Shown piece after piece: positions 1 through 16,731 of a stretch of DNA of 39,987 nucleotides (position 1 is its first letter; each line of letters begins with the position of its first letter). Position numbers and translations under genes: made by a program. The DNA comes from a bacterium (GTDB lineage: Bacteria > Hydrothermota > Tepidihabitantia > Tepidihabitantales > Tepidihabitantaceae), in contig JAWOHE010000052.1 of assembly GCA_046485285.1 (NCBI GenBank), forward strand, positions 1-39,987, read 5' to 3'. The notes beneath the pieces are model-generated. The model was given only the letters and a program-made list of their open reading frames with translations. It made no database searches and was not told the DNA's origin.

Positions 1-51
1 GCCCAAAGTACGCGGGAGGAAGCGCAAAGCAGACGGATTCAGCCCCTAATT

Positions 52-91
52 CGGTTAGCGTCACCGATTTCCGGTTAGCGTCACCGATTTC
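52..91. repeat. 20-bp direct tandem repeat (cggttagcgtcaccgatttc x2)
   Basis: Two identical consecutive copies at 52-71 and 72-91, lying where the other two DGR targets carry their downstream hairpin module. Confidence 0.85.
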
Positions 92-120
92 GGACACAGA
101 TTACCAGATTCACAGACAGG

Positions 121-1332
121 CTACCACGTCCCGGCACAACGGAACCCGAGGAGGTTGTACCGGCGCGACGGTACGAGCCCGAAGCGGAGGGCGCCGCGCA
201 GGTACCTGGCGAGGTCGAGCCAGGACCCGCCGCGGTACACGCGGCTCTAGCCGGTTGCCGGACCCTGCGGGTTGTTGTTTGCGCCCCGGCCGTAGTAGTC
301 CTTGTCGTACCAGTCATCGCACCATTCCCAGACATTCCCGGCCATATCCAAGAGGCCATAGGGCGAGGCTCCGGCCGGAAACGCCCCGACCGGCGCGGTA
401 TTGACATACCCGTCGTCGTAGCCTGTGATGATTGTCCAGTCAGAGTATCGCCGTTTGGCTGACTCGTCCGCGAAGTTCCCATTCCTGCTCGACCCCGGCG
501 CGCTGCTGCCCCACGGGTACTCCCTCGCATCCGTGCCCCGCGCCGCCTTTTCCCATTCCGCCTCGGTCGGCAGGCGCTTGCCCGCCCAGTCGCAGTAAGC
601 CTTGGCGTCGTCCCAGCTCACGTTGACAACCGGGTAGTCAGGGCAGGACCTGAGGTAGTCAGGCTTTCCGAGGAAGTCCGGGTCCTGCGGGTAGCTCCTC
701 CCGGTCGCGTCGCAGAACCGCCTGTACTGGCGGTTGGTCACCTCGTGCTTGTCGATGTAGTACGCGTCCAGATACACCTGCCGCACCGGCTTCTCGTCGT
801 CGAACTCGGTGGAGCCCATCGTGAAGGTCCCGGCCGGAATCTTCACCATCACCGATGAGTCCTTCAGCCACAGCGCCTCCTCGTAGCCCTGCGCGTTACG
901 GCCCCGGGCAACCGGGCCCGCCGGCGCCAGCACCCGGGCGGTGACGACGCAGTCGGAATACCCCTGTGCCTGGATGCGCACCTCGTGCTCGCCGACCGCC
1001 ACCCCGGTCACCGTCGTCGGCGTGTTGCCGACATAGGTCCCGTCGAGTTTCACCGCCGCGCCCGCCGGCGAGGAACTCACCGCCAGCGTGTCGCCGGACA
1101 CCGTCACCTTTCCCTCGACTCGCTTCGGCCTCGGCCTGCTCGTCTCGACCGGCACCAGCCTGACCGGCCTGCCGTCTTCGCCCGTGCACTCCGCGCAGAA
1201 GTTGTCCTCGTCCGGGTAGGTCGCCCCGCACTTCGGGCACTTCCTTGCGGCAAGCGCGACCGCCGCGACGAGCAGCAAGGTAACGGCTGCGATCACGATG
1301 CGCCTGCCTCGACTGACGCTCTGAACGTTCAT
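121..1332 (-). pseudogene. DGR target 1: secreted Zn-ribbon/PEGA/FGE-sulfatase (CLec-fold) protein interrupted by in-frame TAG at 247-249
   Basis: ATG at 1332 after AAGGAGG RBS. Signal peptide, CPKC..CAEC motif, PEGA-like segment (SSSPAGAAVKLDG..GNTP), FGE motifs (RLPTEAEWEKAARG, DMAGNVWEWC). The frame continues past the TAG as SRVYRGGSW...LGFRCAGTW* to 121, matching the C-termini of its paralogs. Confidence 0.8.
129..252 (-). repeat. DGR variable repeat VR1
   Basis: Colinear with the TR. By manual alignment 23 of 32 TR adenines are substituted; the only non-adenine difference is TCG->TAG. Confidence 0.92.
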
Positions 1333-1400
1333 CTGCAGTACCTCCTTTGCAGGTTTGCCTGCACCGGCATCGCTGAATCGTAACCCGCGCCGTCGGCCAG

Positions 1401-2465
1401 TCAACCGGCCAGCAGGCCGGCGCGGCCCAGCACCTGCCGGTTCAGCCGGTAGCTGTTACCCCACCGGCTGTGCCCGAGCCAGGCGGTGAGCGACTCGCGC
1501 ACCCGCCGGTTGCGCGCCGCGCCGCTTCCGGCCGCCAGCTTCCTGAGAGCCCTCGCATAGCGCACCGCGGTCGCCTTCCGCACCAGCCGGTGGCCCGGCC
1601 AGACCCGGAACCCGAGGAACTCCGCGCCGTCGCCGGTGCGCCAGACCCGGGTCCGCGCTTCGTGCAGCGTCAGCCTGAGGTCCCACAGGAAGCGCTCGAT
1701 GTCGCGCCGGACTCCGTGCAGCGCCGACGGGTTGTCGGCGAAGACCGCGAAGTCGTCCATGTAGCGCAGGTAGCGCCGACAGCGCAGTTCCTCCTTGACG
1801 AAGTGGTCCAGCTTGTTCAGGTAGACATTGCCGAAGAACTGGCTGGTCAGGTTGCCGATCGGCAGGCCGCGCACACGGGCAAGCGGCGTAAACAGGTCGT
1901 CGCCCGGGAACCAGGCGAGCTCGTACTCCGGCTCGAGGATACCGGCGCCGCTGGCCAGAATCAGCTCACACAGCGCCAGCACCCGCCGGTCCCGGATGCG
2001 CCGGTCGAGCTGTCGCCTCAGTATCCCGTGGTCCACCGACGGGTAGAACTTGCGGATGTCGCCGCGGAGGACGAACCGGCTCCCCCGCGCCCAGCGCTGG
2101 TAGCGGGCGAGCGCCCGGTGCTGGCCCTTGCCCCTCCGGCAGGCGTAGGAGTCGTGGATGAACCCGGTCTCGAAAACCGGCTCAAGAATGGCGTGGAGGG
2201 CGTGGTGGACAACTCGGTCCCGGAACGGCGCCGCGGTTATCAATCTGCGCTTCTGGTCCTCGACGTAGAAGTTGCGGTAAGGCCCGGGCCGCCACTCACC
2301 GGAGACCAGTTCGCGCTGGAGCCGCAGGAGTCCGGGCTCTAGGTTCAGCTCGAATGCCGCGACATCAGGCCGGCCGCGTTTCCCTCGCCGGGCCTGCCGG
2401 AAAGCGGCCAGCAGGCTTTCGAACCGGACCATTCGCTCGAACCGGCCGCCGAAGCTGTGCGGCAT
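1401..2465 (-). CDS. DGR reverse transcriptase
   Basis: RT motifs PFRDRVVHHA, DIRKFYPSVDH, GLPIGNLTSQ (SQ signature typical of DGR RTs), RYMDDF and FLGFR. About 354 aa with no maturase or endonuclease tail. Adjacent to TR and avd. Start taken at MPHSF (ATG 2465). Confidence 0.95.
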   Translation of the reverse strand: MPHSFGGRFERMVRFESLLAAFRQARRGKRGRPDVAAFELNLEPGLLRLQRELVSGEWRPGPYRNFYVEDQKRRLITAAPFRDRVVHHALHAILEPVFETGFIHDSYACRRGKGQHRALARYQRWARGSRFVLRGDIRKFYPSVDHGILRRQLDRRIRDRRVLALCELILASGAGILEPEYELAWFPGDDLFTPLARVRGLPIGNLTSQFFGNVYLNKLDHFVKEELRCRRYLRYMDDFAVFADNPSALHGVRRDIERFLWDLRLTLHEARTRVWRTGDGAEFLGFRVWPGHRLVRKATAVRYARALRKLAAGSGAARNRRVRESLTAWLGHSRWGNSYRLNRQVLGRAGLLAG

Positions 2466-2655
2466 CACGCAAGGTCGCCCGGGCGCGGGCCGCGGGCGCC
2501 AGCCGCCTGCCGGTCCGCGCCCGGACTGCTCCATTGTGGTCAGCCGCGCAAGCCTGCCACGGCCGACTCAGGACACGGGCAATCCGGTAGCCTCTCAGCG
2601 CAGTCCGCCGGTCCGTGGACCGGCGGCATCTGGTCGAAAGCTCCGAGGCCACTGC
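2466..2655 (-). ncRNA. Structured spacer between TR and RT (likely 3' part of the DGR template RNA)
   Basis: Non-coding interval with inverted repeats 2605-2614/2617-2626 (perfect) and 2479-2492/2511-2524 (one mismatch). Position matches the DGR spacer region. Confidence 0.5.
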
Positions 2656-2780
2656 TCCCGGCACAACGGAACCCGAGGTTGTTGTTCCGGTTCGATGGTT
2701 CGTTCCTGTTGCGGTTGGCGCTGCGCAGGTTCCTGGCGTTGTTGTTCCAGGACCCGCCGCGGTTCACGCGGTTCGAGCCA
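2656..2780 (-). repeat. DGR template repeat (TR)
   Basis: AAC-rich copy of the target C-terminus (reads GSNRVNRGGSWNNNARNLRSANRNRNEPSNRNNNLGFRCAG; 13 AAC codons, 32 A) between avd and RT. Three VR copies in the window differ from it at its adenines. Confidence 0.95.
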
Positions 2781-2795
2781 TTTCTGCCCGTGCCC

Positions 2796-3146
2796 TCAAC
2801 CGGGCAGCCGGGTCTGTTGTCGAATCCAGCCGCCCAGAAGCCTGCCGATTTCATCAATCTCCCTTGCCGCATACTCGTATGAGTTTGTCGCGAGCACCTT
2901 CAGCTCGTGGCTCAGCCGCACCAGCACGCGCAGTGTCTCGAGCGCGGCGTCGGCCCTGTCCAGCAGGGCCAGCTTGTCGCGCCGCCGGTTTGCGGACACC
3001 GCCGCCTCCAGCACGGTCAGCGCCCGGTCCTCGATTCTCACCGCCAGCGAGAACCTCAGCGACTTCGGGAACTTCTGCGTGTGCCGTAACAGCCAGCAGG
3101 AGAAATCGAAGCTACGCTGAATTACCAGAAACTCCGTTCTTGCCAT
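2796..3146 (-). CDS. avd: DGR accessory variability determinant (Avd), four-helix bundle
   Basis: 116 aa, basic and helical, with KFPKSLRFSLAVRI and EIGRLLGGW motifs. Immediately upstream of the TR. Confidence 0.9.
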   Translation of the reverse strand: MARTEFLVIQRSFDFSCWLLRHTQKFPKSLRFSLAVRIEDRALTVLEAAVSANRRRDKLALLDRADAALETLRVLVRLSHELKVLATNSYEYAAREIDEIGRLLGGWIRQQTRLPG

Positions 3147-3163
3147 TTTTCGCCGCCCGTCGA

Positions 3164-3232
3164 GCGGCGGCTTCGCCGCCGCCCCCGGAGCCCAGATATT
3201 CAGATTTCCAGATTACCAGATTCACAGACAGG
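3164..3232 (-). other. Conserved post-VR cis module: AATCTG octamer repeats plus GC hairpin (gcggcggc-GAA-gccgccgc)
   Basis: Nearly identical to 11986-12056. The 8-bp stem with 3-nt loop at 3164-3182 resembles the target-recognition hairpin found downstream of DGR VRs. Confidence 0.75.
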
Positions 3233-5200
3233 CTACCACGTCCCGGCACAACGGAACCCGAGGTCGCGGCTCCGGTACGACGGCGCGTACCCGACGCGGT
3301 GGGCGCCGCGCAGGCCCCAGGCGACGTTGAGGTTCCAGGACCCGCCGCGGAGCACGCGGAACGAGCCGGATGACGGCCCCGGCGGGTTGCGGTCCACGCC
3401 TTTGCCGTAGTAGTCGCTGTCGTACCAGTCATTGCACCATTCCCAGACATTCCCGGCCATATCGAGCAACCCATAGGGCGAGGCGCCGGCCGGGAACGAC
3501 CCGACCGGTGAGGTATGTCGGTAGCCGTCTTCGGTATAATTGCCCGGGTCATAGTTTGCCCGGTATCTCCCACCCGCGTCCGGCGCTTCATTGCCCCACG
3601 GATACTTCCGCCCATCCGTGCCCCGCGCCGCCTTCTCCCATTCCGCCTCGGTCGGCAGACGCTTGCCCGCCCAGTCGGCATAAGCCCTGGCGTCGTCCCA
3701 ACTGACATTGACCACGGGATAGGACGGATAGGACTGAAAGTAGTTGGACATGCTCTCGAAACCCGGGTCCTGCGGGTAGCCCCGGCCGGTCGCGTCGCAG
3801 AACTTCTTGTACTGCCGGTTGGTCACCTCGTGCTTGTCGATGTGGTACGCGTCCAGATACACCTGCCGCACCGGCTTCTCGCCGCTGTCCGCGTCGCTCG
3901 CGTCCGACCCCATCGTGAAGGCCCCGGCCGGAATCCTGACCATCACCGACGAGTCCTTGAGCCACAGCGCCTCCTCGTAGCCCTGCGCGTTCCGGCCGAG
4001 GGAGCGCATACCGCCTGCCGCCGGTCGCTCACCGCTCACCGCAGGCTGTTCGGCTGCTCCGGGCCCGGCAGGAGCGGCATCCCTGCCGCGATTGCCCGTC
4101 AGAACGACCAACAACACCACCGCGGCGATGGCAATGCCGATGCCGATGCCGAGAACCGCCTTGCGGCGAGGAGGGTGATGAGTGATGAGTGATGAGTAAT
4201 GCGGAACCTCCGGCACCGCCGCCACCGGGTCCGGTATCGTCTTCCGCATCACCGCTTCCGGCCGTATGCTGTGAGCTGGCGGCTGTCGGCCTTTCTCCTC
4301 ATCGGGCTGTAAGCTGTCGGCTGGTGGCTGTGGGCTTCTCTCCTCCGGCTGTAAGCTGTGAGCTGTCAGCCGTAGGCTGTTCTCCAGCGCTTCTGCGAAT
4401 TCCTCACAGCTCTGGAACCGCTCCTGCGGCTTCTTCCGCATCGCCTTGAGTATCACCCGTTCCATCGCTTCGCTGATTCCCGGGTTCGCCCTGCGCGGCG
4501 GTATCGGCGGCTCCTGCAGGTGCGCCTCGAAGAACGAGGAGGTGTCGGATTCGTCAAATGGCAGTCGGCCGGTCGCGGCCTCGTACAGGGTACAGCCGAG
4601 CGAGTAGATGTCCGTGCGCCGGTCCAGCCGCTTGTCCAGCACCTGCTCCGGCGACATGTAAGCCGGAGTGCCGACCCGGTGGCCGGATACCGACACGCCG
4701 GTGTTGCCGGAGACGATCCGGGCAATCCCGAAGTCGCCGACCTTTGCCCCGAACTCGGTCAGCATTATGTTCAAGGGCTTCAAATCACGGTGGACGATTC
4801 CGTGCCGGTGGGCGAACCCGACCGCGGAGAGCACCTGACCGAAGAGCCGCCCGAGTTCTTCCGGCGGCAGTGCGCCCCGGGCCTTCACCAGCCCGGCAAG
4901 GTCCCGCACCCCGCGGACCCCGGCGATGTATTCGAGTATCAGGAACAGGCCGTCCTCGTTCTCGACATAGTCGAAGAGCGAGACGATGTTCGGGTGGCCC
5001 CTGAGCCGGGCCTGGGAGTTGGCCTCGTCCGCGGCCCGGCGGGCCGCTTCCGGGTCCCCGAAGATGAGCTTGGGGGAGAGGAGCTTGACCGCCACGACCT
5101 GGCTCTCGATTTTCCGGTGCACTGCGCGATAGACCACGCCCATCCCGCCCCGGCCGACCTCTTCGGTGATGCGGTAGTTGCCGACAAGAACGCCAATCAT
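3233..5200 (-). CDS. DGR target 2: membrane Ser/Thr (Hanks) kinase with C-terminal FGE-sulfatase/CLec variable domain
   Basis: Kinase motifs GRGGMGVVY, VAVK, HRDLKPLN, DFG, GTPAYMSPE. TM helix AVLGIGIGIAIAAVVLLVVLTG. FGE domain ends in the VR (RGGSW...LGFRCAGTW). Confidence 0.93.
   Translation of the reverse strand: MIGVLVGNYRITEEVGRGGMGVVYRAVHRKIESQVVAVKLLSPKLIFGDPEAARRAADEANSQARLRGHPNIVSLFDYVENEDGLFLILEYIAGVRGVRDLAGLVKARGALPPEELGRLFGQVLSAVGFAHRHGIVHRDLKPLNIMLTEFGAKVGDFGIARIVSGNTGVSVSGHRVGTPAYMSPEQVLDKRLDRRTDIYSLGCTLYEAATGRLPFDESDTSSFFEAHLQEPPIPPRRANPGISEAMERVILKAMRKKPQERFQSCEEFAEALENSLRLTAHSLQPEERSPQPPADSLQPDEEKGRQPPAHSIRPEAVMRKTIPDPVAAVPEVPHYSSLITHHPPRRKAVLGIGIGIAIAAVVLLVVLTGNRGRDAAPAGPGAAEQPAVSGERPAAGGMRSLGRNAQGYEEALWLKDSSVMVRIPAGAFTMGSDASDADSGEKPVRQVYLDAYHIDKHEVTNRQYKKFCDATGRGYPQDPGFESMSNYFQSYPSYPVVNVSWDDARAYADWAGKRLPTEAEWEKAARGTDGRKYPWGNEAPDAGGRYRANYDPGNYTEDGYRHTSPVGSFPAGASPYGLLDMAGNVWEWCNDWYDSDYYGKGVDRNPPGPSSGSFRVLRGGSWNLNVAWGLRGAHRVGYAPSYRSRDLGFRCAGTW
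3241..3367 (-). repeat. DGR variable repeat VR2
   Basis: All substitutions versus the TR are at TR adenines (about 23), plus one extra NNC codon in the first AAC run. Confidence 0.92.
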
Positions 5201-5211
5201 GGCCGGGAGCC

Positions 5212-5242
5212 CACAGCCGACAGCTCACAGCCATCAGCTATC
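5212..5242. repeat. Heptamer array (cacagcc/gacagct/atcagct) downstream of the four-helix gene
   Basis: 7-nt periodicity; inverted relative to the array at 5673-5707. Confidence 0.7.
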
Positions 5243-5293
5243 CGGACATGGGCAACAGAACATCTGCTCCGGACGACGGTCAACCGTATGGAC

Positions 5294-5656
5294 CTATTCA
5301 TCAGCCGCCGTGACGCGCTGTAACAGCCGGGTCAGCATTCTCTTGACTTCTTCGTACTTCGCTTCCAGCCCGGCAACTTCACCCGGCTTCGCGTACCCTA
5401 GCCTTCCGGCAAGGCTCAACTGGTAACGAACTTCCTCGCAGGAGCCGATAGCGATATTCACGAACCGGGCGAAGTCTCTCTGGCTGGACCGGGCCGCACC
5501 CTCGACAAGGTTCATCGGTATCGAATACGCGGCACGCCGCATCTGCGACGTGAGTCCGAACTGCTCGCTCCGCGGAAACTGCCCGGTCAGGAGATACACC
5601 CGGAGTACCATTTCGTCTGCCAGCTTGAATACTTCGTACTTACCGATGTTTCTCAC
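5294..5656 (-). CDS. Four helix bundle protein (23S rRNA IVP-like family)
   Basis: FPRSEQFGLTSQMRRAAYSIPMNLVEG...FVNIAIGSCEEVRYQL is the family pattern. GTG start at 5656 after GGAGG. Confidence 0.88.
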   Translation of the reverse strand: MRNIGKYEVFKLADEMVLRVYLLTGQFPRSEQFGLTSQMRRAAYSIPMNLVEGAARSSQRDFARFVNIAIGSCEEVRYQLSLAGRLGYAKPGEVAGLEAKYEEVKRMLTRLLQRVTAADE

Positions 5657-5672
5657 CTGACCTCCGCGGCCC

Positions 5673-5707
5673 GCTGGCTGTAAGCTGTAAGCTGATAGCT
5701 GACGGCT
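5673..5707. repeat. Heptamer array (gtaagct/gatagct/gacggct) upstream of the four-helix gene
   Basis: 7-nt periodicity; 5694-5707 is the reverse complement of 5229-5242 with one mismatch. Confidence 0.7.
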
Positions 5708-5711
5708 CCTC

Positions 5712-8303
5712 TCATACAATATCCCTCCTCCTCAGCGCGAGCGCGGCGAGGATGGTGAAGACAGCGGTCAGGAAGGACAGCACCAGCAGGCCGGGGACGA
5801 GCCCGAGCGTCGGCATCTCCTTGAACCAGTAGAAGGTGTTCGCCCCATCCCGGGTCATCGCCAGCGCGGGCGTGAGCTGGCCGACGGTCCGGGTGCTGAA
5901 CCGTGACAGGACGTCCAGCACCCAGCGCGATATCATCAGGTTCGAGAAGAACCTCATCGGCCCGAGCTGGGGCAGGGGCACGACCATCCCGGCGAAGAGC
6001 ACCTGCGGTATCAGCGTCAGCGGCACCAGCCCCATCGCGCCCTCGGGCGATGACAGGAGAGCGGAAATCAGCAGGCCCATCGCCGACCCGGCAATCCCGC
6101 CCAGGGTCAGGACCGCGGTGTAGCCGAGGATACTGCCCGGCAGTTCCGCCACCATCAGCTTGACGATGACCGACAGCACGAGGCATTGGACGAACAGGAA
6201 CACCGCCAGCACAAACGCCTTGGACAGGATGTACGGCGCAATCTTCAGGTTCACCATCCTCTCCCGGCGATAGACCGACCACTCGGCGACGATTTCCCGG
6301 CAGGAGTTGGTCGCCCCGAACCATATCGCCGCCAGCGCCAGCATGAACAGCACCCCGCCCATCGCCTCGTAGCCCTTGTCCCCGAAGACCAGCCCGATGA
6401 GCAGGGCGATTATCGGCGCCTGGGCGAGCAGGACCGCGGTGCCGGCGGTGTCGGAGAGCTTCATCCGCCAGTAGCGCCGGACCAGGATGCCCCACTGGCG
6501 CAGGCCGTTGGTCGGCTGGCGCCCGGTCTTCGCGCCGACCCCGGTCTTGACGCTCTTGACCTCCATCCGGCCCGCGACATAGTCCGCATAGTACCGGGAC
6601 TCCCGGAACTTCCGCTCCCAGTACTCGCCCGGCCGGTAGATCGGCTCGCCGCACTTGTCGCACTTCGGCAGGGGGCGGGGCGCGGTCGGGAACTTCCGGT
6701 CGCACTTCGGGCAGTACTTGCCGCCGAGGTAGAACAGCAGCTTGCGCGGGTCGTCCCGGCCGATCCCGCCGAAGTGGTCGAAGACCTCCCGGCCCGGCCC
6801 GTGGTAGACCAGCCTGCCCTCGTCCACCAGCAGGACCATGTCGAGCGTGTCGAATGTCGAGCGGGACTCGACATTGTGGGTCGTCAGTATCACCGACCGA
6901 CCGCCGCGCGCGGCCTCGGCCAGCACCTCGGTCACTTCCTCCGCGGTCGCCGGGTCGAGCCCGGACAGCGGCTCGTCGAGGAACAGGCAGGCCGGTTCGG
7001 TTATCAGCTCCTGGGCGAGGTTCACCCGCTTGCGCTGGCCGCCGGAAATCCCCCGCTTCTGCGGGTCGCCGATGCGGACGTTGCGACAGCCGTCCAGCCG
7101 CAGGTCGCTGATGACCTCGTCCACCCGTTGCTTCACTTCCGCGTCCGAGGTGTCCTCGGGCAGCCTGAGCTTGGCGGTGTAGTAGAGCGACTGCTCGACG
7201 GTCAGCGACCGGTGGATGATGTCGTCCTGCGGCACGTAGCCGATATTGCCGCGCAGGGCGTCGTAGTTCGCGTAGAGGTCAACCCCGCCGAACCGGACCA
7301 GGCCGGTCGCACTGCTGTCGTAGCCGGTGATGACGTTGAGCAGGGTGGTCTTGCCCGAGCCGGACGGCCCGATGAGTCCGGTGAACTCGCCCGGGCAGGA
7401 GACGAAGGAGATGTTCTGGATGATGACCGTGCTCGGGACCTCTTTGCGGATGTCGGCGGCCTCGAGCTTGACCTGGCCGGGCTCGGCCGGATGCCTCAGC
7501 CGCTCCTCCTCAAACGCGAGCGCGTATGATCCTAGGCCGATGGTGTCGCCCCGGGCGAGCAGGGCCTCGGTGACCCGCCGGCCGTTGACGAAGGTGCCGT
7601 TCATCGAGCCGAGGTCCCTGATGAAGGTGCCCGACCCGCGGCGCTCGATGCGGCAGTGATGCCGGGAGACCTGGGGGTAGTTGACCACGAGGTCGTTGTC
7701 GGTGGCCCGGCCGATGCTCAGTCGGTCCCGGTCGAGGTGGATGACCCGGTCCTGCTTCCTGTCCCCGAGCGCGCGCTCACCGAACCGGCGCGAGGCCAGC
7801 CGCGAGAACTCCGGCCGGCGCTCGCTCACGCGCCCGGCGCCGCCTGCCACCCCGCCCGACTCGTCGCGGGCCGGCGGGCGGTCGGCGGACGGCTCGTCTC
7901 CGTCCGGCCGAGTCAGGCGGCATTCCACGACCGCTTCCTGCTCAACCCGAAATCGCAATGCCCCGCTCCGACCCAGTCTTACGACCTGTCCGGACTCGAC
8001 CCGGCTCTCGGTCACCCGCTCTTTTCCCGCGCCGACGTAGGTGCCGTTCAGCGAGCCGAGGTCGCGCACGACCGCGCGCCCGGCGGCATCGGTCCCGACC
8101 CAGCAGTGCAGGCCCGAGATGCTGTGCTCCGGGTCCTGCACCTCGAGGAGGAGCGGCTCGCCCTCGGTCGGCAGTCCCAGCTCCGCCCGCCGCCGGGCCG
8201 CGTCCTCGAGCTTCTCCTTCCAGTAGCCGATGAGCACCCCGGCCCGGGGAAGTTCGCACTCCTCACCTTGCCTCGGCCCGGCGATGATGCTCAGCCTGGC
8301 CAC
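5712..8303 (-). CDS. FHA-FHA-ABC ATPase-permease fusion (Rv1747-like ABC transporter)
   Basis: Two FHA-like segments (ISGLHC..DLGSLNGTYV; IGRATDND..VSRHHC..DLGSMNGTFVNG), Walker A GPSGSGKTT, ISGGQRKR signature, FLDEP Walker B and C-terminal ABC-2-type TM helices. Confidence 0.9.
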   Translation of the reverse strand: MARLSIIAGPRQGEECELPRAGVLIGYWKEKLEDAARRRAELGLPTEGEPLLLEVQDPEHSISGLHCWVGTDAAGRAVVRDLGSLNGTYVGAGKERVTESRVESGQVVRLGRSGALRFRVEQEAVVECRLTRPDGDEPSADRPPARDESGGVAGGAGRVSERRPEFSRLASRRFGERALGDRKQDRVIHLDRDRLSIGRATDNDLVVNYPQVSRHHCRIERRGSGTFIRDLGSMNGTFVNGRRVTEALLARGDTIGLGSYALAFEEERLRHPAEPGQVKLEAADIRKEVPSTVIIQNISFVSCPGEFTGLIGPSGSGKTTLLNVITGYDSSATGLVRFGGVDLYANYDALRGNIGYVPQDDIIHRSLTVEQSLYYTAKLRLPEDTSDAEVKQRVDEVISDLRLDGCRNVRIGDPQKRGISGGQRKRVNLAQELITEPACLFLDEPLSGLDPATAEEVTEVLAEAARGGRSVILTTHNVESRSTFDTLDMVLLVDEGRLVYHGPGREVFDHFGGIGRDDPRKLLFYLGGKYCPKCDRKFPTAPRPLPKCDKCGEPIYRPGEYWERKFRESRYYADYVAGRMEVKSVKTGVGAKTGRQPTNGLRQWGILVRRYWRMKLSDTAGTAVLLAQAPIIALLIGLVFGDKGYEAMGGVLFMLALAAIWFGATNSCREIVAEWSVYRRERMVNLKIAPYILSKAFVLAVFLFVQCLVLSVIVKLMVAELPGSILGYTAVLTLGGIAGSAMGLLISALLSSPEGAMGLVPLTLIPQVLFAGMVVPLPQLGPMRFFSNLMISRWVLDVLSRFSTRTVGQLTPALAMTRDGANTFYWFKEMPTLGLVPGLLVLSFLTAVFTILAALALRRRDIV

Positions 8304-8361
8304 GGCAATCTCCCTTCTGGCTCATCACTTCTGAATCCGGCCGCTTCCTTCTCGTCACTCA

Positions 8362-8868
8362 TTACTCATCACTTCCTGACACCGCTTCCCTCAACCGCTC
8401 CCGGACCGCCAGCCGTTCCTCGACCCGGAAGCCCAGCCGCACCCGGCCCAGTGGCGTCCTCAGCCGGTACTCGCCCTCGACCCGGCAGGCCGCGTCATCG
8501 CCCGCCAGCCGCGGCAGGGACCGCAGGATGCCCGCCGCGTCGGGCGTGAACGGCAGGCGGACCAGGGTCGCGACGCCGGGCCGCAGTTCCAGCTCGCCCG
8601 GGTACCTGCCCCGGCCGACCGCCGTTCCCTCAACCGCCAGCCGGTACTCGAGCTCGCTCAGCCGCACCGCGAACCGGTTCGGGTTCGTCGCGACCACGGC
8701 CAGCTCCAGACCCTGCTCCGGGTTCCAGGCCAGGCCGGCCAGCCGCGCCTCGACCGGCTTCACCAGCCACGAGCAGGAAACCGCCGGCAGCAGCAGGCAC
8801 GGCCAGGCGCGAACCACCAGGCGGACAATGCCGCGCACGGAACTGCCGACCGCGTCTCCGGCTCGCAC
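8362..8868 (-). CDS. LEA type 2 (WHy-domain) lipoprotein
   Basis: Lipobox-like LPAVSC; ATNPNRFAVRLSELEYRLAVEG..VGRG is the LEA_2 pattern. Start uncertain. Confidence 0.7.
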   Translation of the reverse strand: MRAGDAVGSSVRGIVRLVVRAWPCLLLPAVSCSWLVKPVEARLAGLAWNPEQGLELAVVATNPNRFAVRLSELEYRLAVEGTAVGRGRYPGELELRPGVATLVRLPFTPDAAGILRSLPRLAGDDAACRVEGEYRLRTPLGRVRLGFRVEERLAVRERLREAVSGSDE

Positions 8869-8869
8869 T

Positions 8870-10306
8870 TCACAGCCTCTGGAACACGTGCCCGCACCGG
8901 GTGCAGAACCTCGCGGCGGCCTTGCGCGTCGTCCCGCAGTCCGGACAGGTCCGCCTGCCCCAGCACCAGGTCACCCGCACCGTGTCGCCCCGGTTCAGCG
9001 GCGCGCCCGCCGCCGGCCGGGCAGTGACCACCGCGCCCGGCGCGGCATCGTCCGCAAGCACGCTGTCGGCGGCAACCAGCACCAGGCCCTGCTCCTGCGC
9101 CAGCCGCCGCGCCGAGGCGAGGCTGACTCCCGCCAGCTCCGGAAGCACGAACCCGGCCGTCGGCTGTCTGCGTGCCAGGAGGACTCCGCCGACCACCGCC
9201 ACAACCAGCACCGCCGCGATGCCAATGACGAGAACCGCCTTGCGGCGAGGAGGGTGATGAGTGTCTTCCGCTGACCGCTTGCCGCCGCCCGCTCTCTTCA
9301 CTCTTCCCTCTTCGCTCCTCACTTCCTCCTCCGGCACCGCCGCCACCGGGTCCGGTATCGTCTTCCGCATCACCGCTTCCGGCCGTATGCTGTGAGCTGG
9401 CGGGTGTCGGCCTTTCTCCTCATCGGGCTGTAAGCTGTCGGCTGCTGGCCGCAGGCCTCTCTCCTCCGGCTGTCGGCTGTCCGCCAGCGCCTCCGCAAAC
9501 TCCTCACAGCTCTGGAACCGCTCCTCCGGCTTCTTCGCCATCGCCTTGAGTATCGCCCGTTCCATCGTTTCGCTCAGCCATGGATTCCTCTGCCGCGGCG
9601 GCGGCGGCGGCACGGACAGGTGCTGTTCCTCCATCGAGGTCGTCGAGGTCGCCTGGAACGGCATCGCGCCCGCGGCCAGTTCGTAGAGCACGCAGCCCAG
9701 CGAGTAGATGTCGGTGCGCGCGTCCAGCGGCCGGTTCAGCACCTGCTCCGGCGACATGTAGGCGGGAGTGCCGACCCGGGTGCCGGAGAGCGAGATGTTC
9801 GTGTCGCCGCCGATTATCTTGGCGATGCCGAAGTCGGCGATCTTCACCAGCCCGGACTCGGCAAACAGGATGTTCAGCGGTTTTATGTCCCGGTGCAGGA
9901 CCCCGTGCCGGTGCGCGCAGGACACGCCCTCGAGTATCTGCCGGAATATCTCCCGGGTCCGGGCCTCGGGCACCGGCCCGAGCTTGACCAGGTCGCCGAG
10001 GTTCTTCGCCCGCTGGCCGCCGGGCAGGACCATGCCTTCGAGATACTCCATCACGATGTAGTACTGCCCGTCGTGCTCGAAGAAGTTGTGCAGGGTGACG
10101 ATGTTCGGATGCTTGAGCCGGGCCTGGGTCTTCGCCTCCTCGAAGAACCGCTGGCGGAACCGGACATCCCGGGTCAGGATGGCATCGAGCGTCTTCATCG
10201 CCACTTCCTGCTCGAGGAGCCGGTGCACGGCCTTGTACACGACCCCGAACCCGCCCTCACCGAGCTTGTCGGTGATGCGATAGTCGCCGATGGATTGGCC
10301 GATCAT
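8870..10306 (-). CDS. Membrane Ser/Thr kinase with PASTA domain and C-terminal zinc ribbon
   Basis: Kinase motifs GEGGFGVVY, HRDIKPLN, DFG, GTPAYMSPE. TM helix, PASTA-like LPELAGVSLASARRL..PAAGAPLNRGDTVRV, then CPDC..CTRC. Confidence 0.9.
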   Translation of the reverse strand: MIGQSIGDYRITDKLGEGGFGVVYKAVHRLLEQEVAMKTLDAILTRDVRFRQRFFEEAKTQARLKHPNIVTLHNFFEHDGQYYIVMEYLEGMVLPGGQRAKNLGDLVKLGPVPEARTREIFRQILEGVSCAHRHGVLHRDIKPLNILFAESGLVKIADFGIAKIIGGDTNISLSGTRVGTPAYMSPEQVLNRPLDARTDIYSLGCVLYELAAGAMPFQATSTTSMEEQHLSVPPPPPRQRNPWLSETMERAILKAMAKKPEERFQSCEEFAEALADSRQPEERGLRPAADSLQPDEEKGRHPPAHSIRPEAVMRKTIPDPVAAVPEEEVRSEEGRVKRAGGGKRSAEDTHHPPRRKAVLVIGIAAVLVVAVVGGVLLARRQPTAGFVLPELAGVSLASARRLAQEQGLVLVAADSVLADDAAPGAVVTARPAAGAPLNRGDTVRVTWCWGRRTCPDCGTTRKAAARFCTRCGHVFQRL

Positions 10307-10313
10307 AGGATTA

Positions 10314-10345
10314 GCGATGAGTTATGAGTAATGAGTGATGAGTCA
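10314..10345. repeat. TGATGAG-type heptamer array
   Basis: gcgatga gttatga gtaatga gtgatga. Related arrays at 4175-4201 (same orientation) and at 8321-8375 and 11884-11914 (opposite orientation). Confidence 0.65.
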
Positions 10346-10478
10346 CGGACAGGAATGGCGAAGGGTCGGCGAGCGATGCGTAGAGAACAGGAACAGTGAT
10401 GAGTATCGTGTAATGAGAGAGGACAGGACCGGCCTGGCCGATGGTCGCCTGTCTCTTCCCGCTGCGTTCTCGCTTCAC

Positions 10479-11888
10479 TCATAACCCATCACCTCCTTCT
10501 GCTGTCCCTGTGTCTTTATCCGGCGCTCGCGCGCTGTCGGGCTTCGTTTCATCTTCCGGGCTGTCTGCTGATGGCAGTAAGCTGTCGGCTGTCGGCTGAG
10601 AGCTGTCCGCCTCCGTCCGACCGCTCTCGGCAGTAAGCGGCAAGCTGTCGGCTGATGGCTGACCGCTGTCCTCTTCCGGCGGGCTCAGCAGGTCACGTGC
10701 CTGCCTCTGGAATCCGGGCCCGATGCTCACGGAGCCGGCTGCCGGTTCGAGGCTGGTCGGGTCCTGTGTTGCGCCGGGCGCCGTGCTCGTCTGCCCCTGC
10801 CCGGGGCTGTCTGCTTCCTGCCGTTCCGGGCTGTCGGCTGGAAGCTGCAGACTGTCGGCTTCCTCTTGTCTCAGGCTGTCAGCTGGAAGCTGTAAGCTGT
10901 CGGCTTCCGGCTGTCCGCTGTCCACGGCCGGCCGTTCCAGGTACCGCCAGACCGCAAACGCAAGCACGAGCAGGAAGACCAGCCCGGCAAGCACCAGCGG
11001 CAGCGCCCGTCGGCGGCCGGCGCGCCGCGGGCGCCGCGGCGCGGACGCGGTCAATGGCATCGTTTCCCGGCCGTGCGCAGTCGGCTGTAAGCTGTCGGCT
11101 GCCCGCGCCGCTTCGCCCGCCTGCACCACAATCACCGTCACGTTGTCCGGCGCGCCGCGCTTCTTGACCTGCTCGACGATCTCCAGCACCGCCCGGTCCG
11201 GCGGATGCCGGAGCAGGATGTCGCGCAGTTCCTCGTCCTCCAGCACCCCGTGCGCGCCATCACTGCTGAGCAGGAACCGGTCCCCGGCCCGCGGTTCGAG
11301 CTCGAAGGACTCGGCCTCGGACCTGGCTATCCCGAGCGCGCGGCTGATGATGTTCCGCTTCGGGCTGTTCCGGGCCTGCTCCGGGGTCATCAGGCCCTTG
11401 CTGACCAGCCGGGCGACCAGGGTGTGGTCGTTGGTAATCTGCGACATCTGCCCGTCGCGCAGGAGGTAGCACCGGCTGTCGCCGACGCTGGCGATGTATG
11501 CCTTGTCACCGTGAAGCACGAGCGCGGTCAGGGTCGCGCCCATTCCCTTCCGCTCCGGCGCCTCGGCGGCCGCCGCCACCGCCTCGTGGGCCGCCCGCAT
11601 CGCCTGCGCCAGCATCCGGCCCGGGTCGCCGGCCCACGGTCGCCGGTAGTAGTGCTCGCTGAGCGCGTCCACGCCCAGCCTGCTCGCGACCTCGCCCGCC
11701 GCCTCGCCGCCCATCCCGTCCGCTACCGCGTACAGCCTGCCCCGCTCCACCAGCAAACGGTCCTCAACTGCACTCGGGACGAAGAGCGCATCCTCGTTCT
11801 TGGGCCGGGCCGGGTTCAGTCCCCGGTCGGTGGCAGAGCCGATGGATGGAGGACAATCGCCCACCGCCGCCTCCTTATCCCGACTCAT
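10479..11888 (-). CDS. Membrane-anchored PP2C/Stp1-family Ser/Thr phosphatase
   Basis: Motifs NEDA, VADGMGG, GATL, VGDSRCY, DHTLV, LLSSDG, DNVT. TM helix followed by a low-complexity ADSxQP repeat tail. Confidence 0.92.
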   Translation of the reverse strand: MSRDKEAAVGDCPPSIGSATDRGLNPARPKNEDALFVPSAVEDRLLVERGRLYAVADGMGGEAAGEVASRLGVDALSEHYYRRPWAGDPGRMLAQAMRAAHEAVAAAAEAPERKGMGATLTALVLHGDKAYIASVGDSRCYLLRDGQMSQITNDHTLVARLVSKGLMTPEQARNSPKRNIISRALGIARSEAESFELEPRAGDRFLLSSDGAHGVLEDEELRDILLRHPPDRAVLEIVEQVKKRGAPDNVTVIVVQAGEAARAADSLQPTAHGRETMPLTASAPRRPRRAGRRRALPLVLAGLVFLLVLAFAVWRYLERPAVDSGQPEADSLQLPADSLRQEEADSLQLPADSPERQEADSPGQGQTSTAPGATQDPTSLEPAAGSVSIGPGFQRQARDLLSPPEEDSGQPSADSLPLTAESGRTEADSSQPTADSLLPSADSPEDETKPDSARAPDKDTGTAEGGDGL

Positions 11889-11985
11889 TGCTCATCACCC
11901 TTCACTCATTACTTCCTCTCAATGCGCGGCACGGGACAGGTTGCGGCCGTCCCGGCGCAGAGGTATGACCGCATCATCAGCCGTC

Positions 11986-12056
11986 GAGCGGCGGCTTCGC
12001 CGCCGCTCCCGGAGCCCAGATATTCAGATTTCCAGATTACCAGATTCACAGACAGA
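11986..12056 (-). other. Conserved post-VR cis module: AATCTG octamer repeats plus GC hairpin (gagcggcggc-GAA-gccgccgctc)
   Basis: 10-bp perfect stem at 11986-12008; module nearly identical to 3164-3232. Confidence 0.75.
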
Positions 12057-13142
12057 CTACCTTGTCCCGGCACAACGGAACCCGAGGAAGATGATCCGGA
12101 ACGATGGTTCGTACCTGCCGCGGTAGGCGCTGCGCAGGGACCCGGCGTTGTTGAGCCAGGACCCGCCGCGGTACACGCGGGGCGAGCCAGTCGCCGGGCC
12201 CTGCGGGTTGCGGTCCACGCCTTTGCCGTAGTAGTCGCTGTCATACCAGTCATTGCACCATTCCCAGACATTACCCGCCATATCCAGCAACCCATAGGGC
12301 GACGCACCCGCCGAAAAGCTGCCCACCGGCGCCGTGAACTCGTAGCCGTCCCGCCGCCAGACGGCCCGGTCCGAGCCTTCGCCCCAGTTCGCCCGGTATC
12401 TTCCGCCCGCATCCGGCTCCTCGTTCCCCCACGGGTACTTCCGCGCATCCGTGCCCCGGGCCGCTTTCTCCCATTCCGCCTCGGTCGGCAGGCGCTTGCC
12501 CGCCCAGTCGCAGTAAGCCCTCGCGTCGTTCCACGACACCAGCACTGCCGGGTGGTTCTCGGTGCTGTACCCGTAGTACGTCCGCCAGCTCACCCCGGAC
12601 TTGGTCAGCCACTTCGACAAGTCGGTGTCGTAGACGTAACCGGTACCCTCCTTCTCGGCGTCGGTCCGGTACCCGGTCGCCTTCACGAACCTCTCATACT
12701 GCCGGTTCGTCACCTCGTGCTTGTCCAGCCAGAACTCGTCGAGATACACCCTGTGCTGGGGCCGCTCGTCGGACTCTCCCTCGCCCGTGACGCTCCCCAT
12801 CCAGAACTCGCCGGCCGGGACCTTCACCATCACCGACGAGTCCTTCAGCCACAGCGCTTCCTCGTAGCCCTGAGCGTTCCGGCCCAGCGCCTTCATTCCG
12901 GCCGGTGCAGTCGGCGCCGGGGCCGGCGCCGGGGCAGGCCTCGGCGCGGGCCTCGGCACCGGCACCAGCCGCAACGGCTTGCCGTCTTCGCCCGCGCACT
13001 CCGCGCAGTAGTTGTCCTCGTCCGGGTAGGTCGTCCCGCAGTTCGGGCACCGCTTCGCCGCCAGCGCGAGCGAGACGACCATAACCAGCAGGATGCCGGC
13101 CGCCATCCGCCCGGCCCGGCCCGCAAATCGCCGCGAGTTCAT
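12057..13142 (-). CDS. DGR target 3: secreted Zn-ribbon + Pro/Ala linker + FGE-sulfatase/CLec protein
   Basis: RBS AAGGAGG, signal peptide, CPNC..CAEC, PAPAPAP linker, FGE motifs and C-terminal VR (RGGSWLNNAGSLRSAYRGRYEPSFRIIFLGFRCAG). Confidence 0.92.
   Translation of the reverse strand: MNSRRFAGRAGRMAAGILLVMVVSLALAAKRCPNCGTTYPDEDNYCAECAGEDGKPLRLVPVPRPAPRPAPAPAPAPTAPAGMKALGRNAQGYEEALWLKDSSVMVKVPAGEFWMGSVTGEGESDERPQHRVYLDEFWLDKHEVTNRQYERFVKATGYRTDAEKEGTGYVYDTDLSKWLTKSGVSWRTYYGYSTENHPAVLVSWNDARAYCDWAGKRLPTEAEWEKAARGTDARKYPWGNEEPDAGGRYRANWGEGSDRAVWRRDGYEFTAPVGSFSAGASPYGLLDMAGNVWEWCNDWYDSDYYGKGVDRNPQGPATGSPRVYRGGSWLNNAGSLRSAYRGRYEPSFRIIFLGFRCAGTR
12065..12189 (-). repeat. DGR variable repeat VR3
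   Basis: 18 of 32 TR adenines substituted and no non-adenine differences in manual alignment. Confidence 0.93.
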
Positions 13143-13172
13143 CGCACGCGCCTCCTTTCTTGCGCCCCGCCC

Positions 13173-13673
13173 TCAGCGCCCGTCCTCCCCGCCTCCGGCC
13201 TGCGCCCTCTTCATCAGCGGCCTCAGCAGCGACGCGGCGGTGAAGTTCTGCTCCGAGGTCGCGGCGATCGAGTATGACCCGCGTACCTGGTACTTGACCC
13301 CGCGCTTCGCGACCGCCGACCTGATGCCGGTCAGCACGCTGCCGGCCTTGACCGACAGCGGCACCGCGATGACCTGCGACCCCTCGGCCTCGACCGTCAC
13401 CGGCGCCTGCTGTTCGCCCGAGGCGACGACCGCGCCGTCGATGATGACCTCGTACTTGATGTCCGAGACCGAGACCGTCATCTTCGACGGGTTGCTGACC
13501 TTGAGCTCGAGCTTTGCCGGGAACTCGAACAGCTCGAGCCCGACCGGGGCGAGGTCGAGCAGGACCGCGCCCGCCGTGCCGGACAGGAAGGTCGCGCAGG
13601 CCGGACCGAGCCCGGCGCAGGCGGCCGCCAGCAGCAGGACCATCCCCGCGCGCCGACTTGCCTTGTGTCTCAC
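13173..13673 (-). CDS. LEA type 2 family protein (probable lipoprotein)
   Basis: GTG at 13673 after GGAGG; hydrophobic N-terminus with Cys; LKVSNPSKMTVSVSDIKYEVIIDG..VASG LEA_2 pattern. This is the 3' part of ORF 13173..14828. Confidence 0.7.
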   Translation of the reverse strand: MRHKASRRAGMVLLLAAACAGLGPACATFLSGTAGAVLLDLAPVGLELFEFPAKLELKVSNPSKMTVSVSDIKYEVIIDGAVVASGEQQAPVTVEAEGSQVIAVPLSVKAGSVLTGIRSAVAKRGVKYQVRGSYSIAATSEQNFTAASLLRPLMKRAQAGGGEDGR

Positions 13674-13690
13674 GGTTTGCCTCCCGTCGC

Positions 13691-14665
13691 TCACTGGCGG
13701 GCCCGGCCGGTGTAGGCCGCGAGCCGGTCCGCCACGTCGAACACGCCCGTGACCTGCACCGGCTCGACCGACCGGCCGCCCTCGGCCTCGAGCGTGTAGT
13801 AGCCGCGCACCCGGTAGCTGACCCTGCCGTGCGCGACCAGCGCGGCCGCGGCCCGGCCCAGCCGGTCGTGGCGGATGTTCACGCTCAGCACGCTCGCCGC
13901 GGCCCGGCCCGGCGGCAGTTCGACATCGCAGGCGTGCTTCGCGCTGGCGAGGTAGAAAGTGTCCACCTCGAGCTTGTAGTAGAACGCCCGGATCCGGCCG
14001 GGCACGAGGTTGGGGTTGGTCGCGGCGAGCCCGACCGCGAGCGTGAAGCCGTCGCCGCCGGCATCGGTCGCCTCGACCGAAGTCAGCTCGATTGCCGGGC
14101 GGGCGAAGGACAGCGGCACCGGCGGCGGCGGCGGCGCGGTGCTGATAACGAGGTTGACCGGCTGTCCCCGCATCAGCTCCGTGCCCGCCGGCGGGTCCAT
14201 CCTGACGATCCGGCCAGGCGGGTACTCGGTCGTCCGCTCGGTCGTGACCTTGCCCGGGACGAGGCCCGACCTCGGCAGCTCGACGGCGGCGTCCTCGCGC
14301 TTGAACCCGGCCAGCTCCGGCACGACCTTCACCGGGCCCTTGCTGACCGTGACCCGCACCGTGTCGTCCTTCTTCACCAGCGTCCCGGCCGCCTGCTCCT
14401 GGCCGAGTATCACGCCCGCCGGTGCCGAGTCGTCCGGCCTGCTCAGCTCCTCCCGGAGCGCCAGCCCGAGCGCGCCGGCGTCCGCCGCCGCCTCCGCGAA
14501 GGGCCGGCCGACGAACTCCGGGACCTTTACCCTGTTGCGCGAGCCGGCGCTGGCCATCACCACGATGACCACGATGACCGCGACGACCGCGAGCGCGACC
14601 ACGATGTAGCGCGTGGTATGCCCGCCCGGTGTCCGGGCCGGGGGGTCTTTCTTCGTCAGCTCCAT
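13691..14665 (-). CDS. Membrane protein with two PASTA domains and C-terminal LEA_2 domain
   Basis: ATG at 14665 after AGGAGG; N-terminal TM; PASTA repeats (VPEFVGR..AGTLVKKDDTVRVTVSKG; VPELAG..PPAGTELMRGQPVNLVIS); TNPNLVPGRIRAFYYKLEVD LEA_2-like segment. Confidence 0.8.
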   Translation of the reverse strand: MELTKKDPPARTPGGHTTRYIVVALAVVAVIVVIVVMASAGSRNRVKVPEFVGRPFAEAAADAGALGLALREELSRPDDSAPAGVILGQEQAAGTLVKKDDTVRVTVSKGPVKVVPELAGFKREDAAVELPRSGLVPGKVTTERTTEYPPGRIVRMDPPAGTELMRGQPVNLVISTAPPPPPVPLSFARPAIELTSVEATDAGGDGFTLAVGLAATNPNLVPGRIRAFYYKLEVDTFYLASAKHACDVELPPGRAAASVLSVNIRHDRLGRAAAALVAHGRVSYRVRGYYTLEAEGGRSVEPVQVTGVFDVADRLAAYTGRARQ

Positions 14666-16686: not shown

Positions 16687-16731
16687 CGCCACGCGATGTT
16701 AGCGCTTGCCGCCCGCGCGGTCAAGTGGCGG

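Follow-up and report, generated by a model that had tools for sequence, protein, structure and literature searches.

The prototype of the diversity-generating retroelement (DGR) is that of Bordetella phage BPP-1, in which the genes and repeats are arranged in the order mtd-avd-TR-brt, TR denoting the template repeat and brt the gene for the reverse transcriptase (RT), bRT. Several targets per TR are carried by about 15% of DGRs, among them a three-target example that has been figured; similarly, indels opposite AAC codons, non-adenine changes accompanied by frame damage, targets that join a kinase to a lectin domain, and unequal activity of the targets within one locus have been described (accessible parts of PMC5758913 and PMC10907252). 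The present analysis concerns a DGR in a stretch of DNA, hereafter the window, that comprises the first 39,987 bases of contig C15 (C15:1-39987) in a genome bin, i.e., a metagenome-assembled genome (MAG), of 2.34 Mb, 102 contigs, and 88% completeness. The locus is very probably a complete chromosomal DGR of the standard avd-TR-RT type, comprising one TR and three variable regions (VRs), which likely varies the ligand specificity of membrane sensors. The element has its RT, Avd, and TR in intact form, its mutations are specific to adenines, and the VRs are homogenised to the TR. As such, the locus is a further example of a well-known DGR type, and the features listed in a preliminary description of the window have already been described elsewhere.

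With the BPP-1 element, the window shares the order target, avd, TR, spacer, and RT, an RT that is aligned over its full length with the structure 8ub7_A, an Avd protein, and, according to the accessible part of PMC3240598, an A-free GC-rich 3′ segment common to TR and VR as well as a GC-rich inverted repeat behind the VR. It differs from BPP-1 in being chromosomal instead of phage-borne, in having three targets instead of one, in diversifying FGE-type lectin domains of membrane proteins rather than a tail fibre, and in a 28-residue insertion in the RT (query residues 172-199). In the phage set covered by the same part of PMC3240598, the hairpins possess 7-10-bp stems and 4-nt GRNA loops located 4-34 bp from the VR, whereas the hairpin of the window has a 3-nt GAA loop at 56 nt, and a TCTG repeat array fills the gap between VR and hairpin. 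Inverted repeats are nevertheless not obligatory, as they were recorded in 127 of 372 surveyed DGRs (34%; accessible part of PMC5758913).

The DGR of Treponema denticola with its target TvpA (PDB 2Y3C) resembles the window in a C-type-lectin fold of FGE subclass without formylglycine activity and in one TR serving several related targets (accessible part of PMC5758913); however, the FGE domains of the window targets are far closer to true FGEs (~5e-51) than to TvpA (2y3c_A, matched by target 3 at 1e-13), one of the targets is fused to a Ser/Thr kinase, and none of the three is more than 13 kb away from the TR. Likewise, the DGR loci of Thiohalocapsa PB-PSB1 (PMC10907252) and the three-target or kinase-domain DGRs of the survey (PMC5758913), as far as the accessible parts describe them, are similar in their multi-target loci, their targets with a kinase domain and a C-terminal C-type-lectin (CLec)/FGE domain, and the unequal diversification of targets within a locus. 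They belong to other host lineages, and the targets of the window differ from theirs in being small single-pass membrane proteins placed in a cluster of Ser/Thr kinase (STK), PP2C, and FHA-ABC genes rather than in STAND/NACHT conflict systems.

The locus leaves the existing knowledge of DGRs unchanged, and its value is that of a clean and complete cellular DGR from a little-studied lineage that can serve as a reference; a wider reach would come only from the repeat array behind the VRs. What is diversified is the ectodomain of a receptor Ser/Thr kinase and of two kinase-less paralogs in a conserved phospho-signalling cluster, which fits the view that cellular DGRs tune sensors.

Template Repeat, Variable Regions, and Mutation Pattern

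A repeat search of the window yielded a single four-copy family (129-253, 2656-2780, 3241-3365, and 12065-12189), and, together with Pfam, it recovered avd, TR, RT, and the three TR-like copies where the preliminary description had placed them. In the computed alignments of the TR core with the three VRs (Table 1), 64 of the 65 substitutions fall at TR adenines, while only one non-adenine change occurs in 273 comparisons; this adenine-restricted pattern is far beyond chance (Fisher's test, 3e-16 for VR1 and 5e-13 for VR3) and bears out the signature of mutagenic retrohoming claimed earlier. The replacements at adenines are A to T in 30 cases, A to G in 20, and A to C in 14, and 31 of the 33 TR adenines are altered in at least one VR.

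The earlier manual counts of 23, about 23, and 18 changed adenines were recomputed as 23, 23, and 18, the value for VR2 becoming 24 of 33 under other gap placements; the total of 32 TR adenines is correct if the boundary A is left out, whereas the 124-nt core contains 33. The single non-adenine substitution and the single indel were also reproduced, the latter being one extra NNC codon (a 3-nt insertion) in VR2 opposite the AAC-AAC-AAC run of the TR. The same applies to the codon census of the TR (13 AAC, 2 AGG, 1 AGC, 1 GAA, and 1 CCA), from none of which a stop codon is reachable by A-substitution, and to the repertoire per target, which amounts to 4^32 = 1.84e19 DNA variants and 3.5e17 peptide variants (previously given as about 3e17).

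Comparison of the paralogs further distinguishes the VRs from their surroundings: the non-adenine positions of the VRs differ at 0-1 of 91 sites, whereas the adjoining upstream 120 nt differ at 12-23 of 120 (10-19%). The near-identity of the VR backbone against this upstream divergence indicates that all three VRs were overwritten from the TR after the genes had diverged, and it supports past writing of the TR into all three targets, a statement that concerns past and not present activity. At the 3′ boundary, a 21-nt A-free GC-rich segment is identical in the TR and the three VRs, with divergence beyond it, and this segment has the properties of a putative 3′ boundary of the initiation of mutagenic homing (IMH/IMH*) type. 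When the whole genome was searched with the TR for more targets, only the three VRs matched, the other 12 matches having E values of at least 0.3, and no second RT was found in the genome. The fifth FGE gene of the genome, on contig C90, is not TR-like, nor is the 3′ end of an FGE gene on contig C363 of the same-genus genome G002.

We infer the biochemical steps by homology with the BPP-1 element. The TR and the structured spacer would be transcribed together, the RT-Avd complex would copy the TR into cDNA while misincorporating opposite adenines, and the cDNA would then replace the last ~124 nt of those targets that bear the matching A-free 3′ segment and flank. TR information has gone into three paralogous genes, each coding for a single-pass membrane protein with a presumably non-catalytic FGE-type lectin domain.

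Reverse Transcriptase, Avd, and the DGR RNA

The RT is recognised by Pfam as RVT_1 within the frame 1401-2534. Its nearest solved structure is 8ub7_A (2.4e-54, 188 bits), which we take to be the BPP-1 enzyme, the residue numbering being in agreement, and the next is a group II intron RT (3.1e-23). The alignment with 8ub7_A is collinear over residues 10-341 and includes Arg74, IGNLTSQ, and YMDD, of which the last two align with I181-Q187 and YMDD of bRT. The numbering of 8ub7_A fits that of bRT as used in the accessible part of PMC7826257, in which R74, I181, and [I/V/L]GxxxSQ are named as DGR hallmarks. The protein also shows the motifs of DGR RTs, [I/V/L]GxxxSQ in place of QGxxxSP, plus YxDD. 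As candidates, a group II intron RT (maturase model TIGR04416, 141.5 against a cut-off of 300) and a retron RT (NF038233, retron St85, 42.6 against a cut-off of 235) were rejected, both scores being far below the cut-offs. The assignment of the RT to the DGR RTs is thereby supported, and the clustering with group II intron or retron RTs that the preliminary description had regarded as contrary evidence was not seen.

Among the relatives of this RT, the gene is accompanied in 55 of 82 loci from genomes and in 35 of 80 from metagenomes by an adenine-biased repeat pair, defined as one in which adenines of one copy, read on the RT strand, account for 80% or more of the mismatches, many of the loci without such a pair being contigs of 1-3 kb; two VRs lie within the 6-kb flanks in about 16 of the 55 genome loci. 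The RT frame of the window is open up to 2534. The start at 2465, as proposed earlier, is supported by a long conserved RNA hairpin with compensatory changes at 2534-2466 and by four of five relatives (64-69% identity), in which a stop separates the upstream ATG from the RT N-terminus; it also aligns RT residue 10 with bRT residue 10. In four related loci (L105, L106, L107, and L108), the RT N-terminus follows a stop codon with no ATG nearby, and their RT start codon may be non-canonical.

The spacer RNA folded by RNAalifold from six sequences contains 63 pairs, 20 of which show a double (compensatory) change in at least one sequence, and Rfam returned no family for it or for any other part of positions 1-14000, its one match having an E value of 0.96. 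Avd is assigned by Pfam bAvd (79.4 bits, cut-off 40; 2796-3146) and by NCBIfam NF033474 DivGenRetAVD (104.6 bits, cut-off 80).

Target Genes

FGE-sulfatase is matched by Pfam in the three frames 247-1404, 3233-5200, and 12057-13142, and in targets 2 and 3 the match extends to position 254 of the 255 in the profile. A VR located at the 3′ end of an open C-type-lectin-fold gene is found in targets 2 and 3 but not in target 1. The translation of target 2 shows the HRD and DFG kinase motifs, and each target contains a single hydrophobic segment, which would place the lectin domain across the membrane from the kinase. In the alignment with 6s07_A, the two-cysteine segment faces N, a 3-residue gap, and variable VR residues of target 3; these two cysteines of the FGE C-terminal stretch we take to be the catalytic ones. 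Because the VR takes the place of the two-cysteine segment, the FGE-type domain of the targets is predicted to be a binder and not an enzyme. The location of the targets in a conserved kinase/PP2C/FHA-ABC signalling cluster makes it most likely that the element varies the ligand specificity of membrane sensors.

Premature Stop Codon in Target 1

The earlier count of three targets stands for VR2 and VR3, which lie in intact genes, but not for VR1, which follows an overlooked in-frame TAG in a gene that also lacks the full 3′ flank. The TAG results from a change of C to A at TR core position 5 (TCG to TAG), and TCG is retained in the TR, VR2, VR3, and both VRs of G022, a genome of another genus in the same family. 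The target 1 frame therefore ends at the second VR1 codon, 41 codons early and ahead of the conserved end of the lectin fold; beyond the premature TAG it would continue to a TAG at 123-121, and the profile search flags one TAG inside the FGE match of target 1. Target 1 may thus be a target that is being lost from the system.

It is rather unlikely that the TAG is a consensus or assembly error and that all three targets are intact, even though it is a single MAG base situated 250 nt from the contig end, in a region that recurs three times in the contig. Damage on the 3′ side of VR1 is independent of the TAG: only three TCTG are left where VR2 and VR3 have five or six, the hairpin is missing, and a tandem duplication of 20 nt stands in their place. 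A systematic error at sites of the CTCGAG type was rejected, since 2785 occurrences of CTCGAG compare with 48 of CTAGAG, for which 48.5 were expected. Recoding of TAG was likewise rejected: TAG is an ordinary stop in this genome, which has no CUA-anticodon tRNA among its 41 tRNAs and in which TAG closes 1087 of 3388 long open frames. Targets 2 and 3 also terminate in TAG. As for a genuine origin, one change per 126 cytosine positions across the three VRs is roughly what the RT itself could yield, since the bRT variant I181N misincorporates at ~0.5% of template cytosines, a rate said to be similar to that of the wild type (accessible part of PMC7826257). The TAG could also be overwritten by a later homing event.

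Conservation in Related Genomes

In G022, the RT is 70% identical and the whole cassette is syntenic together with its neighbours, in the order kinase-PASTA, PEGA-FGE gene, LEA_2, FHA-ABC, IVP, kinase-FGE target, avd, TR, RT, and second FGE target; this locus contains two adenine-biased VRs. The metagenome contig L106 contains the same gene set in a different order. A close RT is absent from four other genomes of the window's genus (83-96% complete), and no near-identical contigs were present in the collections searched, in which the best RT identity was 69% for metagenomes and 65-70% for genomes. In the G022 locus (L103, ~11850-12300), the spacer between TR and RT is enlarged to ~580 nt and includes a ~55-nt repeat in three copies; this repeat, which contains an inverted repeat of its own, resembles a miniature inverted-repeat transposable element (MITE). 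The RT, TR, and two VRs of this locus nevertheless look intact.

Activity of the Element

Several points weigh against a complete and active DGR with three targets. Target 1 is truncated before VR1, so that only two targets are demonstrably intact, and it lacks two of the TCTG repeats and the hairpin. Moreover, the genome is 88% complete and further targets may exist; the sequence, located at the end of a contig, is the consensus of a MAG, in which the VRs are possibly population chimeras and the first 130 nt possibly mis-assembled. The RT of the closest metagenome contig is only 69% identical, so that current activity is presumed.

An element that is intact in sequence but inactive, its VRs being frozen products of past retrohoming, is unlikely yet deserves weight: one target has a nonsense codon and a damaged 3′ flank, and the four same-genus genomes without a close RT show the element to be patchy and losable. 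However, RT, Avd, TR, and the spacer helices are intact and conserved, no TR codon has decayed into a stop-capable one, and the VRs show one non-adenine difference in 273 comparisons against a flanking divergence of 10-19%. The earlier statement that the element is or recently was active on several targets holds on an evolutionary scale, with the qualification that target 1 is truncated and has an incomplete 3′ flank element. That the C-terminal blocks are merely a region made hypervariable by selection or gene conversion, with the TR as a gene fragment, can be practically dismissed, for although the TR does score as an FGE-sulfatase fragment (27.4 bits), as expected if it is target-derived, neither process would confine 64 of 65 differences to the adenines of a non-coding copy, the TR lies in canonical order between avd and a DGR-type RT, and the adenine restriction refutes a non-retroelement origin.

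Repeat Array and Hairpin behind the Variable Regions

Behind VR2 and VR3, the TCTG array is followed by a hairpin with an 8-10-bp GC stem and a GAA loop, 56-58 nt past the VR end. A search of the 2.34-Mb genome for a 15-mer derived from the array gives the sites behind the three VRs and no others. In place of the distal half of this flank element, VR1 is followed by an exact 20-nt tandem duplication at 52-91, the unit of which is found nowhere else in the genome. Array and hairpin also occur behind both VRs of G022 and in L106, L107, and L109, the stem in L109 showing compensatory changes.

For a wider census, 114 VRs from the window and the fetched loci were considered that satisfy the adenine criterion and have at least 100 nt downstream; these loci are related to each other, and the counts are consequently not independent. 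Of the 114 VR flanks, 27 have a tandem repeat of 6-10 nt within 90 nt, compared with 32 among 2276 random windows from these loci and a single case among 91 windows that follow TRs. Three or more TCTG are present in 49 of 114 flanks against 23 of 2276 random windows. For a GC hairpin, the figures are 45 of 114 flanks and 68 of 2276 random windows; its most frequent loop is GAA (13 of 45), and it starts at a median of 53 nt. TCTG arrays occur in 33 of 114 VR flanks and in none of 252 stretches of the same loci that are free of open reading frames, and behind TRs they are almost lacking. Grouped into 71 similarity clusters, the flanks show a TCTG array in 21 clusters and some such repeat in 32. 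The array units (loci L024-L184) are 7-8 nt long, pyrimidine-rich, and of the TCTG type, the CCCTTT/CTTTTAC type, or the GTCTTTTT type, and in many DGRs of this RT clade, the arrays sit between the VR and the GC hairpin.

Repeat arrays behind VRs are not mentioned in the accessible parts of PMC3240598 and PMC5758913, and no paper describing them was found. It is conceivable, though doubtful, that the array is a functional acceptor element of a large cellular DGR clade for which no description was found. If so, it would label the end of a gene as an acceptor for the DGR, would explain why target 1, having lost half of the array and the hairpin, is possibly dropping out, and would provide a new testable element for the unsolved question of how the cDNA locates its target and gets into it. 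As a candidate function, pairing of the TCTG array with the spacer RNA was rejected, since a 7-nt complement in the window is not kept in relatives.

The genome is also rich in heptanucleotide tandem arrays, with 47 of period 7 and 65 of period 14 according to Tandem Repeats Finder (TRF), e.g., C53:28036-28074, C62 (four arrays), and C72:15017-15077. Their recurring units are of the TCTGCAA and GGTTCAA types, several adjoin gene starts, and they resemble but differ from the 8-nt arrays behind the VRs.

Gene Neighbourhood

The window has a G+C content of 70%, and its position 1 is the contig end, which bears on VR1. The parts of the DGR, the targets, and the genes of the signalling cluster all lie on the minus strand (Table 1). 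Other genes of the window include TrkH/TrkA, a histidine kinase, a MoxR-BatA-BatD operon, UvrD, PfkB, transaldolase, PrsW, and a glycosyltransferase; no phage genes were seen in the window, the remaining genes being ordinary chromosomal ones, and the setting of the DGR is chromosomal.

Table 1. Positions of the DGR parts, targets, 3′ flank elements, and signalling-cluster genes in the window (TM, transmembrane).
Feature	Position	Strand	Description
Shortened TCTG array after VR1	97-117	-	Three TCTG; no GC hairpin behind
VR1	129-252	-	23/33 adenines changed, 1/91 other positions
Target 1	1332-247	-	TM residues 11-29, zinc ribbon, PEGA, FGE-sulfatase; 361 codons, then premature TAG
In-frame TAG	247-249	-	Sole non-adenine TR/VR difference
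RT	2465-1401	-
Spacer (Sp)	2655-2466	-	Part of DGR RNA, TR to RT, 190 nt
TR core	2779-2656	-	Common to VRs; 124 nt, 33 A; single copy in genome
avd	3146-2796	-
GC hairpin after VR2	3163-3184	-	GAA loop; 56 nt past VR end
TCTG array after VR2	3193-3228	-	Five TCTG at 8-nt spacing (TRF)
VR2	3241-3367	-	127 nt; 23/33 adenines changed, 0/91 others after removing one codon
Target 2	5200-3233	-	Ser/Thr kinase (Pkinase 171 bits), one TM helix (349-367), FGE-sulfatase 230 bits; intact
Four-helix-bundle protein	5719-5294	-	23S_rRNA_IVP family
FHA-ABC transporter	8303-5712	-
LEA_2 protein	8868-8362	-
Ser/Thr kinase	10306-8870	-	PASTA and zinc ribbon
PP2C phosphatase	11888-10479	-	TM segment
GC hairpin after VR3	11987-12007	-	GAA loop; centroid fold keeps stem; 112-nt flank z -3.1
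TCTG array after VR3	12017-12056	-	Six TCTG; TRF period 8, 3.9 copies
VR3	12065-12188	-	18/33 adenines changed, 0/91 others
Target 3	13142-12057	-	Signal-anchor/TM residues 10-28, zinc ribbon (Zn_Ribbon_1), FGE-sulfatase 242 bits; intact

The IVP-family four-helix-bundle genes belong to the superfamily of Avd, and such a gene is directly upstream of a DGR target in all four sub-clade loci that have this side on the contig (window 5294-5719 on the minus strand, L103 8805-9170, L104 4322-4654, and L106 4849-5217). A role of the gene at 5719-5294 as a DGR part is unsupported, as the genome contains five such genes above the cut-off; its protein gives no BLASTP alignment with Avd, and tblastn with it found no homologues in the more distant loci. 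Given the five genes, the adjacency to the target may be plain synteny.

A 7/14-nt periodic DNA repeat occurs in the window at 4248-4384, 5201-5242, 9369-9501, and 10554-11106. In the linkers of target 2 and of the PASTA kinase, as well as in the C-terminal half of the PP2C protein, it is translated into peptide repeats resembling ADSLQP, and it is also present in the intergenic DNA ahead of target 2. Also on the minus strand, two tandem paralogous frames of ~490 codons each and without a Pfam match (15229-16692 and 16732-18222) are connected by repeat families at a spacing of 1512 nt.

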